Below, piece after piece: positions 54,173 to 59,862 of a stretch of 64,000 nt of DNA; within the stretch, counting starts at the first letter, position 1, and every line of letters starts with the position of its first letter. This DNA is from Escherichia phage 241. Where the stretch lies: the sequence record OR924452. The stretch is one strand, 5' to 3'. The position numbers and the translations under genes were made by a program. The notes beneath the pieces were generated by a model. It was given only the letters and a program-made list of their open reading frames with translations. It was not told the origin of the DNA and searched no databases.

Positions 54173-54595
54173 ATGAAGAAATATGTCGTGCTCATTACAG
54201 GTTCCCGCTCAATAACCGAGCGGGATAAAATCTTCGCCAAACTGGATGAACTGTTAGATCCCCACGAGATCGAAACTTTTATAGAAGGTGAAGCGGTTGG
54301 TGTGGACTTGATATCTCGTGATTGGTGTGAAATCAATTATGTCCATGTTACGCCAATGGGGATCCCTAAGGATTATCACACGATATATGGGAAAGGCGCA
54401 GGAAACCAACGTAACAAAGATATGTTAGACAAAGCTACAACCCTGGCCAAACAAAAAGGTCTTGAGGTCTTTGGAATTGCGTTATGGGATGGTTCGTCTA
54501 CTGGGACGCAAGACATGATTACCCGCATGAAAAAAGCAGGAGTCAATGTCAATATCACTCTCATGGGCAAACCCAAAACCAAACGATTGTTATAA
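54173..54595 (+). CDS. Hypothetical protein; weak resemblance to DUF2493/SLOG-type Rossmann proteins
   Basis: N-terminal KKYVVLITGSRS, a Rossmann-like glycine motif (weak). Confidence 0.5.
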   Translation: MKKYVVLITGSRSITERDKIFAKLDELLDPHEIETFIEGEAVGVDLISRDWCEINYVHVTPMGIPKDYHTIYGKGAGNQRNKDMLDKATTLAKQKGLEVFGIALWDGSSTGTQDMITRMKKAGVNVNITLMGKPKTKRLL

Positions 54596-54617
54596 ATATG
54601 TTTGCCTTCACACCCAT

Positions 54618-54800
54618 ATGGAGTTAGCTATGCTGCAATTAATTTTGATTCTTTGCGTCGCTTTTACCATGTACTTTCTGGCGCGAATCAGTTATATCAC
54701 ACTAAATGATCTGAAAAATACACCACGCGAACCTAAATTTATATTTCTAAAGAAATACACCAAAAAGTTCTGCGAGAATTTTATCTATCATCTTCCATGA
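54618..54800 (+). CDS. Small membrane protein
   Basis: Hydrophobic MELAMLQLILILCVAFTMYF. Confidence 0.35.
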   Translation: MELAMLQLILILCVAFTMYFLARISYITLNDLKNTPREPKFIFLKKYTKKFCENFIYHLP

Positions 54801-54802
54801 TT

Positions 54803-54829
54803 ATAAATACCCCCAAAATTGGGGGTATT
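54803..54829 (+). promoter_or_regulatory. Late-promoter-like TATAAATACCCCC plus hairpin (AATACCCCC ... GGGGGTATT)
   Basis: Contains the T4 late-promoter core TATAAATA; 9-bp stem with a 6-nt loop, 2 nt before the ATG at 54832. Confidence 0.5.
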
Positions 54830-54831
54830 TT

Positions 54832-55560
54832 ATGAACGCACAAATCTACGATGTCCTTTCCTCTGGTAACGCATTTAGCAACCCGCTTCCGTCCCTCTCC
54901 GGTCCCTCACAGGATTTAATCACCAGTGGTAGTACCAATATACCATTGATAACTGCCAACGCGACTCCGGAAATGCAGTTGGCTATGTCAGCAGGTGGAT
55001 TAACACCAGATAAACTTACAGCAGCCACAAACATGTATAGCTCTGCCAACACGGGGATAACGACACTGAACACATATGGCGACCAGAGCATAAATGAAGC
55101 GTATTCAAGAATTGGGACTTCCGTTTCATATAAATCAGGTTTGAAAAGTATATCACGGGAACCAAACAATTGTGACCTGATCAACAAAGCATTCGGTGTT
55201 GTTCAGGATCTAGGCCGCCAATGGTTAAACGCTATGGAAGGCGCTCTCCAGACTGTGACTAACAAGATATCGGAATTGTATGACATGATTATGGAAGGTG
55301 CCTCAGAAGGTATGGCAAAACTACAGCAATTGGCTGCTGAAGTAACAGGACATATCAATGAGGCAATAACCGCCGTCAATGGAGTTATAAACGATATCAC
55401 CGATGGGATAGCTGCAGAACTTGCTCATATTGAAAGTATGATCAAAGAATGTCTAAACTTCTCTTTTGCGAATGTTCTTGGAGAATGGGCCAAAGATCTC
55501 TGTGCTGGAGGCGTTATTGATAAAATAGGGACTCCAGAATTAAAAGAGTCCCTGAAATAA
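54832..55560 (+). CDS. Hypothetical protein
   Basis: 242-aa ORF directly after the promoter-hairpin element. Confidence 0.55.
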   Translation: MNAQIYDVLSSGNAFSNPLPSLSGPSQDLITSGSTNIPLITANATPEMQLAMSAGGLTPDKLTAATNMYSSANTGITTLNTYGDQSINEAYSRIGTSVSYKSGLKSISREPNNCDLINKAFGVVQDLGRQWLNAMEGALQTVTNKISELYDMIMEGASEGMAKLQQLAAEVTGHINEAITAVNGVINDITDGIAAELAHIESMIKECLNFSFANVLGEWAKDLCAGGVIDKIGTPELKESLK

Positions 55561-56181
55561 TCAATGTCTAGCGGGGAGAACTCCCACTGGTTCGATACCT
55601 TCCATCACCAGGGAGTTCACCCCAACATCACTCATTCGAATCCATACTTTACCGCCTGGTCTTATTTCATAGATGTTCATTTCATTACCCACAGCAGATC
55701 CATTAACGAAAACACCCTGAGTGGCAATTCGGATCGGAGATTTGGTGTTATTAACTATCTGAAATGATATTGCAACGTCTCTGGTGATTTCTACGTCCCT
55801 TGCTTGAGTATTCCTTCTAAGTTTGTCAAAGAAAGAAGGATTGAAAGTCGCTATGATGCTATTATTCTGAGAGTAATAAATACTTGCGGATAGATATGGG
55901 ATCTTTCCTTCGTCACCTTTCCTCAATAGGGGAATCGTGGTTTTCCAGTATGGTCTCAGTGACTGGTTGTTATCATCAAAACAACCAACAGCTTGAAGAG
56001 TCTGGAAGTTCTGAAAATCAGATACTACTTGATTCAGAATATTTTTATTGCATTTATCAATGTCGGCTGAGATGTTAACAGGTATGGTTCTGATTTCAGG
56101 ATCCCAGAGGTCGGTTACAGAAATGACGGACGTGACAAAGATACGGCAACTTGTGAGTGCAAGCACCATTATCATCGTCAT
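55561..56181 (-). CDS. Lipoprotein (candidate superinfection-exclusion or envelope protein), antisense to neighbouring genes
   Basis: Signal peptide with lipobox MIMVLALTSC; about 200 aa mature protein; only minus-strand gene in this block. Confidence 0.5.
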   Translation of the reverse strand: MTMIMVLALTSCRIFVTSVISVTDLWDPEIRTIPVNISADIDKCNKNILNQVVSDFQNFQTLQAVGCFDDNNQSLRPYWKTTIPLLRKGDEGKIPYLSASIYYSQNNSIIATFNPSFFDKLRRNTQARDVEITRDVAISFQIVNNTKSPIRIATQGVFVNGSAVGNEMNIYEIRPGGKVWIRMSDVGVNSLVMEGIEPVGVLPARH

Positions 56182-56244
56182 GATCCATTTTCTGAATCCG
56201 CGTATCAGGAACACTAAAACGTTCTCCACAGCAAAGGTGCTAAC

Positions 56245-56742
56245 ATGACAGGTGTACAATTCAAAAACGAAAATCCTAATTTCGCGGCTTCCGATAAATG
56301 GCGCTTAACTATCGGAGACCTGATATTGCTTACTCGTTCAATACATGACTTCAGTATTCCTGGAGTGTATTCTGAAGGTATCGAGGGACCATCCCCTGGC
56401 GATGTGCTCAACTCCATACCTTCAGAACGTCTCACGTATGACCCCATCGTATTTACGTTCGTTATCGATGAGAGTTGGTACAACTGGGAACAGATTTACA
56501 ATTGGATTGCGTCTAATGCTGGATCTGATTTAGCTGTCAGCCGCGACATCACCATCGACCTTCTTGATAACATGAATCGACCTGTTGGTCTACAATTGTT
56601 GTTGGAAGAAGCCCGTCCCACAGCTTTGGATAACGTATTGGTGGATGTGGATGCTGCGGTTCCCCAACTGGTCACGACTGTCACGTTCAAATATTTGAAA
56701 CTGACTCCGACTCGCGTCACCCGCGAAATTGATAAACAATAA
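56245..56742 (+). CDS. Hypothetical protein
   Basis: 165-aa ORF with AAAGGTG RBS. Confidence 0.5.
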   Translation: MTGVQFKNENPNFAASDKWRLTIGDLILLTRSIHDFSIPGVYSEGIEGPSPGDVLNSIPSERLTYDPIVFTFVIDESWYNWEQIYNWIASNAGSDLAVSRDITIDLLDNMNRPVGLQLLLEEARPTALDNVLVDVDAAVPQLVTTVTFKYLKLTPTRVTREIDKQ

Positions 56743-59517: not shown

Positions 59518-59862
59518 TCATTTGTCTTGGTTCACATAGGCGGGGGTCGCCTCGCCTTCTTTGTCAGAACCGAATAAACAACCCATCGTGCTGATGCATT
59601 GTTGTAGAACTTCTGGATCCAGAATCTGACACAACAGTTGTTCATTACATTCCAGCAATGGGACAACTTTCACTTCCCGCGCCTGTCCTTGTTGAATAAT
59701 GCCGACATATAGACCTTTGGTGTCTGGCAGTAACGGGATCACCATCATTGGTGTCACAACAAACTTAGAAGTGCAATAGAGGCTGTGTAGGTAAACACCT
59801 TTCAATGCCGGACATGCTTCTTGTTCTTCCCCCACTGCATATAAACCCACGAATTGTTTCAT
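59518..59862 (-). CDS. Hypothetical Cys-containing protein
   Basis: 114-aa ORF convergent with uvsW. Confidence 0.45.
   Translation of the reverse strand: MKQFVGLYAVGEEQEACPALKGVYLHSLYCTSKFVVTPMMVIPLLPDTKGLYVGIIQQGQAREVKVVPLLECNEQLLCQILDPEVLQQCISTMGCLFGSDKEGEATPAYVNQDK

Follow-up and report, generated by a model that had tools for sequence, protein, structure and literature searches.

An antisense lipoprotein gene conserved across the Ackermannviridae: revised start codon, predicted outer-membrane location and a tentative role in superinfection exclusion

Introduction

Spackle of phage T4 inhibits the incoming tail lysozyme gp5 in the periplasm, and Ltp of phage TP-J34 is a lipoprotein that blocks the tape-measure protein. 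Spanins, such as the o-spanin Rz1 and the unimolecular spanin gp11 of phage T1, are likewise phage lipoproteins of the outer membrane. The precedent for periplasmic outer-membrane lipoproteins as exclusion factors is set by Llp of phage T5, Cor of the T1/phi80 group and Rtp45 of phage Rtp, which are proteins of approximately 6–7 kDa made up of single small domains (PMC9586334, PMC12685063). Their genes adjoin the gene for the receptor-binding protein, and the proteins are specific to a lineage and to its receptor (FhuA, LptD) (PMC9586334, PMC12685063).

The gene described here was found in Escherichia phage 241 (sequence record OR924452) and was analysed within a stretch of 64,000 nucleotides, which is referred to below as the window. 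It is already catalogued as a member of a Pfam domain of unknown function, and its homologues in Salmonella phages Mansal, D5lw, pertopsoe and rabagast carry the label “putative lipoprotein” in their records. Pfam DUF7424 and PHROG 3832 are the gene's own families, which it matches over its full length and from which no difference was found. A literature search on DUF7424 returned no paper on the family, hence no experiment or transcript report for any of its members, and the search likewise returned neither transcriptomes nor anything that deals specifically with a lipoprotein of the Ackermannviridae. Cocktails for biocontrol and phage therapy that are directed at Salmonella, E. coli O157, Klebsiella and Dickeya make wide use of the Vi01/CBA120-like Ackermannviridae, and an exported lipoprotein encoded by a core gene could control superinfection, the timing of lysis or the physiology of the envelope across the whole family. 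What the present analysis adds to the existing records is a corrected start codon, proof of core rather than accessory status, and a confident structural model that has no known relative. The remaining interest of the gene is that a phage family in therapeutic use keeps an exported lipoprotein with no recognisable structural relative or assigned function.

Results and discussion

Genomic context of the lipoprotein gene

Over the 3 kb around the lipoprotein gene, the sequence shares 99.5% identity with Salmonella phage vB_SalM_SJ3 (SJ3), and at least 95% identity with 130 deposited phage records, most of which belong to Kuttervirus (Ackermannviridae). The lipoprotein gene itself is 95.9–99.5% identical to the deposited Kuttervirus copies. 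The phage is of the Vi01/CBA120 type (Kuttervirus, Ackermannviridae) and not of the T4 type; the T4-like modules that it has in common with T4 comprise a gp23-like capsid protein, UvsY and UvsW. Two records that are approximately 99% identical to this Kuttervirus region, OR844942.1 (“Enterococcus phage Efm 3-10”) and MN871475.1 (“Pseudomonas phage Pa-sanjiao”), bear host names that are probably mislabelled or contaminant assignments. The gene and its immediate surroundings comprise the following features:

54832..55560, plus strand: DUF7217 virion protein gene, the convergent neighbour (Pfam DUF7217, E 2e-102)
55561..56214, minus strand: coding sequence of the predicted DUF7424 prolipoprotein, 217 aa, most likely with a GTG start, stop codon at 55561-55563 (same span in the SJ3 RefSeq record)
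56224..56227, minus strand: Shine-Dalgarno sequence GGAG, 9 nt upstream of the GTG start, as read from the sequence
56245..56742, plus strand: tail-completion or tail-tube-like gene, the divergent neighbour (phrog_45 “tail tube”, E 2e-33; annotations of SJ3 and Mansal)

The stop codon of the DUF7217 gene abuts that of the lipoprotein gene, with 0 bp between them, and the start of the lipoprotein gene lies 30 bp from the ATG of the divergent tail-completion gene. The latter is the first gene of a block that consists of the tail-completion gene, uvsY, a PD-(D/E)XK nuclease gene and uvsW. A first-pass annotation of the region had described the lipoprotein gene as the only one on the minus strand from the capsid gene to uvsW, and the annotations of SJ3 and Mansal confirm that it is the sole minus-strand coding sequence between the major capsid gene and uvsW. 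The same annotation had placed it inside an early gene block, a description that does not suit the flanking genes, since these encode virion proteins: CsCl-purified virions of phage Sajous1 contain gp166 (DUF7217) and gp168 (tail completion), the orthologues of both neighbours (PMC10892097). The intervening gp167, which is the Sajous1 orthologue of the lipoprotein, is absent from the published virion list, an absence that comes from one proteome and is weak negative evidence (PMC10892097).

Gene boundaries and start codon

The minus-strand open reading frame (ORF) matches Pfam DUF7424 with a score of 204.8 bits (E 1.4e-60) over profile positions 2–195 of 196, the curated gathering threshold of this family being 27 bits, and all 40 aligned relatives match DUF7424 as well. 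Its match to phrog_3832 has an E value of 4e-113. In comparison with the Sajous1 orthologue, the dN/dS ratio of the gene is 0.04, and the corresponding values for the flanking structural genes are 0.023 and 0.043. The low dN/dS ratio and the Pfam and PHROG matches together indicate that the ORF is a real and strongly constrained gene. A spurious antisense ORF is ruled out by the same evidence, and the initial proposal of a minus-strand gene ending at 55561, where the stop codon of the ORF is found, is upheld.

The deposited records disagree on the start of the gene: the product has 217 aa in SJ3 and 202 aa in Mansal, and 204 aa according to some gene calls from metagenomes. The first-pass annotation had chosen an ATG at 56181, which gives 206 aa. 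The GTG at 56214 is most likely the true start. It is preceded at 9 nt by GGAG, and the same GGAG-N8-9-GTG arrangement recurs in Sajous1, Dickeya phage Coodle and Serratia phage Kevin. The N-termini of the homologues also align from this codon, and it is the only start that gives a charged n-region (R5, R8 and K9) together with a cysteine at position 23; from the ATG at 56181, the cysteine would be residue 12 and the n-region would carry no charge. A TTG at 56259 was rejected as a start because it would overlap the start codon of the divergent neighbour. The Shine-Dalgarno sequence, the conserved GTG arrangement, the N-termini of the homologues and a proper signal peptide thus all point to a gene that spans 55561-56214.

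Lipoprotein signal and conserved residues

With the GTG start, the lipobox signal peptide that had been noticed from the shorter frame is borne out and reads MFLIRGFRKWIMTMIMVLA-LTS-C23, followed by R24. The features of the predicted protein that are discussed below map to the following positions:

56149..56214, minus strand: signal peptide, residues 1–22, with the n-region MFLIRGFRK, the h-region WIMTMIMVLA, and then L-T-S (read from the sequence)
56146..56157, minus strand: lipobox L20-T21-S22-C23, with C23 predicted to be acylated and to begin the mature protein, and with Arg24 as the +2 residue
55981..56052, minus strand: stretch between conserved C55 (56050-56052) and C78 (55981-55983), a presumed periplasmic disulfide
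55744..55752, minus strand: N155-N-T157 motif (N-[DN]-T), located where the first strand of the C-terminal beta-sandwich ends

The PROSITE rule PS51257 calls for a charged n-region, an uncharged hydrophobic h-region, the sequence [LVI][ASTVI][GAS]-C and a cysteine at position 15–35. When the rule is applied to the sequence, the product of the GTG start conforms to it, with R5 among the first seven residues and no D, E, R or K in the ten residues before the cysteine, and the products of the ATG at 56181 and of the ATG at 56169 that was used for Mansal do not. In 24 homologues, with identities down to 50%, neither C23 nor R24 varies, and C23 also reaches at least 90% conservation among 40 diverse members of the family. 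Of 102 family sequences, 88 have a strict lipobox preceded by an h-region that is hydrophobic and uncharged; the remainder consists of gene calls truncated at the N-terminus and of sequences with LNSC or STSC in the lipobox column. Every full-length homologue keeps the lipobox cysteine, including the Vibrio phage copies at approximately 22% identity. When 1.84 billion cluster representatives were searched exhaustively with phmmer, only 31 clusters were retrieved, and nearly all of these have a lipobox at the aligned position. On this evidence, the DUF7424 protein is a predicted prolipoprotein with a Sec-type lipoprotein signal peptide and acylation at C23.

The +2 residue differs between groups of homologues. 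Among the copies read from phage loci, it is Arg in phages of enterobacteria and Lys in Vibrio phages, and it is Asp in the alphaproteobacterial homologues. According to the Lol-avoidance rule, which is applied to the +2 residue for outer-membrane sorting, the presence of Arg or Lys rather than Asp at this position predicts transport of the phage proteins to the outer membrane.

Two further cysteines, C55 and C78, are invariant in the alignment of 24 homologues and at least 90% conserved in that of 40 sequences, and the pair is presumed to form a disulfide in the periplasm. The most conserved motif of the family is N-[DN]-T, in which N155 is the sole invariant column in 40 sequences and T157 is at least 90% conserved. 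N155-N-T157 also has the form of an N-x-T sequon.

Predicted structure

AlphaFold2 (AF2) gave a poor model from a shallow alignment (pLDDT 65.5), and a pLDDT of 90.7 with a pTM of 0.83 after distant family members had been added. The resulting model consists of a signal helix (residues 4–19), an alpha/beta N-terminal domain (approximately 25–137) and a beta-sandwich C-terminal domain (approximately 147–212). The mature protein, of approximately 195 aa and 21 kDa, is thus modelled with two domains, the C-terminal one being an Ig-like beta-sandwich. Foldseek searches against predicted viral structures retrieved DUF7424 proteins only, and no solved or annotated structural relative of the model was found in the structure searches. 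A profile search of the PDB gave nothing below E 0.1, and searches with NCBIfam and PADLOC models gave no match. Weak sequence signals were seen between individual members of the family and CARDB, Transglut_C and Peptidase_C25_C, as well as between the family profile and a collagen adhesin; these agree with an Ig-like sandwich in the C-terminal half as predicted, and are uninformative on function.

Distribution within and beyond the Ackermannviridae

The lipoprotein gene, antisense and diverging from the tail-completion gene, is found in Mansal, SJ3, Sajous1, Serratia phage Kevin (38% identity) and Dickeya phage Coodle, and likewise in two unclassified Vibrio Ackermannviridae (approximately 22% identity) and in three environmental contigs. 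Position and orientation are conserved in Kuttervirus, Limestonevirus (Dickeya), Miltonvirus (Serratia), the unclassified Vibrio Ackermannviridae and the environmental relatives, and the gene always lies between capsid-side genes (DUF7217 in the enterobacterial members) and the tail-completion/uvsY/nuclease/uvsW block. In tblastn searches of phage records, the lipoprotein gene was detected in 345 and the neighbouring tail-completion gene in 358. The counts for the two genes are equal for Salmonella, Klebsiella, Escherichia, Dickeya, Serratia, Shigella, Erwinia, Enterobacter and Aeromonas, and for Vibrio they are 61 and 70, respectively, at the limit of sensitivity. The GC content of the gene is 41.4%, compared with 45.3% for the window and 39–53% for neighbouring genes. 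Judged from these sequence comparisons, the DUF7424 lipoprotein gene is a vertically inherited core gene of the Ackermannviridae. A moron-like acquisition, which the first-pass annotation had read from the orientation of the gene, is contradicted by its presence throughout the family in one position and orientation, by the near-equal record counts and by its ordinary GC content. Neither a patchy distribution nor a deviant composition was found, and the flanks of 0 bp and 30 bp show no footprint of an insertion.

Homologues outside the family occur in other settings. A prophage of Haemophilus haemolyticus (GCA_013401795.1, locus L014, 6001-6651) carries a DUF7424 lipoprotein gene between a tape-measure gene and a Dit-like gene, in a contractile-tail module of the E217/PhiTE type that also hosts an antisense HTH/Gp49 pair. 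Other homologues, with Asp at +2, are found in metagenome-assembled genomes on resolvase-bearing islands (L008, 4099-7251; L015, 3727-5994), and a related cluster (P0070) is labelled as Alphaproteobacteria. On these islands, the DUF7424 gene is preceded by genes for SHOCT or Zn-ribbon membrane proteins and followed by a gene for a second signal-peptide protein or lipoprotein, and a RelB/YafQ pair and a DUF3768 gene are found nearby. Scans of viral contigs with the prophage and alphaproteobacterial homologues as queries yielded nothing useful. The contexts outside the Ackermannviridae agree with an envelope function and loosely tie the family to tail modules.

Transcription signals

Two copies of a T4-type late-promoter motif lie on the capsid side of the lipoprotein gene:

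54591-54598, plus strand: TATAAATA, T4-type late-promoter motif, 20 nt upstream of the ATG of a 60-aa ORF
54802-54809, plus strand: TATAAATA, T4-type late-promoter motif, 23 nt upstream of the DUF7217 gene

These are the only two copies in the 64-kb window, a number that represents no enrichment over shuffled sequences (mean 1.8). The copy at 54802-54809 suggests that the genes situated just upstream of the lipoprotein gene are transcribed late. No copy of the motif with one mismatch or fewer is placed so as to drive the lipoprotein gene itself. In the 250 bp that precede the gene, a scan for sigma-70 promoters found no site with at least 8 of 12 matches, and a generic promoter scan found 9/12 sites only, all of which lie inside coding sequence. 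The intergenic regions of distant relatives contain AT-rich motifs that are better read as the promoter and ribosome-binding site of the neighbouring gene. The only terminator-like hairpins, at 55919-55934 (plus strand) and 55324-55339 (minus strand), each lie inside the coding sequence of the opposite gene, and both are weak, with six pairs of which three are G-C.

Comparison with known phage lipoproteins

None of the testable hallmarks of Llp, Cor and Rtp45, namely size, gene position, lineage specificity and similarity, is shared by the DUF7424 protein. With approximately 21 kDa and two domains, the mature protein is far from the 6–7 kDa of the three exclusion lipoproteins. Its gene lies between the DUF7217 and tail-completion genes and not beside a receptor-binding gene, and the gene numbers in the published tailspike table are far from gp167, the Sajous1 orthologue, for every phage listed (PMC10892097). 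Whereas Llp, Cor and Rtp45 track a receptor, DUF7424 is kept by phages that infect Salmonella, Klebsiella, Dickeya, Serratia, Aeromonas and Vibrio. Family and structure searches detected no similarity in sequence or fold to any of the three.

Compared with the spanins, the DUF7424 protein is much larger, is folded, and has no paired i-spanin gene. A spanin was rejected as an identification on the grounds that no i-spanin-like gene is adjacent, that the C-terminus (...EGIEPVGVLPARH) is not hydrophobic, and that the model has two folded domains. The likeness to Spackle and Ltp is conceptual only, in that an exported exclusion factor would act against the phage's own penetration machinery; no relation in sequence or structure to either was detected. 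A similar aim at the conserved penetration machinery of the phage itself would explain why the gene is conserved throughout the family.

Possible functions

If the established Lgt/LspA/Lnt and Lol pathways process the protein as predicted, it would become an outer-membrane, periplasm-facing lipoprotein of the infected cell. Since exported proteins cannot enter virions that are assembled in the cytoplasm, the DUF7424 lipoprotein probably acts on the host envelope. The reading of the protein as a virion component was rejected. The protein may guard the infected cell or its progeny at the envelope, either through superinfection exclusion or by neutralising sites of adsorption or penetration. Protection of this kind is our best guess and is ranked first, with a probability of roughly 35%, and it is also the weakest inferred step of the argument. 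The missing gp167, with both of its neighbours present in the virion, was counted in its favour as weak negative evidence. The Haemophilus homologue was also counted in favour of protection, since exclusion lipoproteins are typically found at such tail-module sites. As the gene is kept from Vibrio phages to Salmonella phages, whose tailspikes and primary receptors differ, the target of exclusion would be a conserved one, be it a component found in every host envelope or the penetration apparatus of the phage family itself; a receptor specific to one host, of the kind tracked by Llp and Cor, is less likely. A bolder version of the proposal, which we consider quite unlikely as a whole, is that DUF7424 represents a new class of envelope factor, namely an outer-membrane lipoprotein of two domains that is present in the whole family, whose fold is without a solved relative, and that would block a conserved post-adsorption step through the penetration apparatus (tail lysozyme, needle or tape measure) or a universal envelope machine. 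If this were so, exclusion would be independent of the O-antigen or capsule receptor that the tailspikes use. Superinfection exclusion in either form would affect the mutual interference of cocktail members, and would offer a receptor-independent exclusion mechanism for study.

Two other explanations share the predicted location in the envelope, and each is unlikely. In one, the lipoprotein would be made with the late virion genes and would help or time the disruption of the envelope as an accessory of lysis and egress, for example by modulating spanins or endolysin, or by weakening the links between outer membrane and peptidoglycan. Phage outer-membrane lipoproteins of known function include the o-spanins, lysis functions are usually core genes as this one is, and the gene is hemmed in by virion genes and has a T4-type late motif close by; late co-expression with these neighbours would fit a role in egress better than early exclusion. 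However, Kuttervirus relatives have an annotated pair of Rz-like spanin and i-spanin elsewhere in the genome (PMC10892097), and the lipoprotein gene lies outside any lysis cassette. The protein has no C-terminal transmembrane segment and is thus not a u-spanin, and its 195 aa in two folded domains are unlike the short, proline-rich o-spanins. In the other explanation, which we hold to be equally doubtful, the protein would bind a conserved periplasmic or outer-membrane component of the host, such as a protease, a stress sensor, an outer-membrane biogenesis machine or an envelope-based defence, and would keep the cell productive by takeover or counter-defence, leaving incoming phages unaffected. 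That the gene is conserved in phages of very different hosts speaks for a target that is conserved too, and the alphaproteobacterial homologues, on mobile islands among membrane proteins and a second lipoprotein, point to an envelope function that is not tied to tails. Against this, no PADLOC or NCBIfam match, no structural relative and no partner was identified.

The suggestion that the gene is a recently acquired, moron-like accessory that masks the receptor of the phage draws on its antisense orientation, on its lipoprotein nature, and on the Haemophilus homologue, which looks like an accessory gene inserted into a tail module. It is nevertheless very improbable, because essentially every Ackermannviridae record has the gene in the same position and orientation, purifying selection on it is strong, its GC content is unremarkable, and the short flanks leave no room for an independent insertion. 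Masking in particular is at odds with tailspike genes that are not adjacent, and with family-wide conservation in the face of varied O-antigen and capsule receptors.

Other genes of the region

A second conserved antisense gene, on the minus strand at 59518-59862 and perhaps starting from 59882, directly follows uvsW and encodes a protein of 114–121 aa that belongs to phrog_4255. A counterpart of similar size is found in the same place and orientation in Sajous1, Serratia phage Kevin and three environmental relatives. With a conserved antisense gene at each end, the tail-completion/uvsY/nuclease/uvsW block is thus bracketed by two genes on the opposite strand. On the capsid side, the 60-aa ORF at 54618-54800 (plus strand) is without annotation in the SJ3 RefSeq record and in Mansal; its product begins with a hydrophobic N-terminal stretch (MELAMLQLILILCVAFTMYFLA...) and matches phrog_4845 (E 8e-33).
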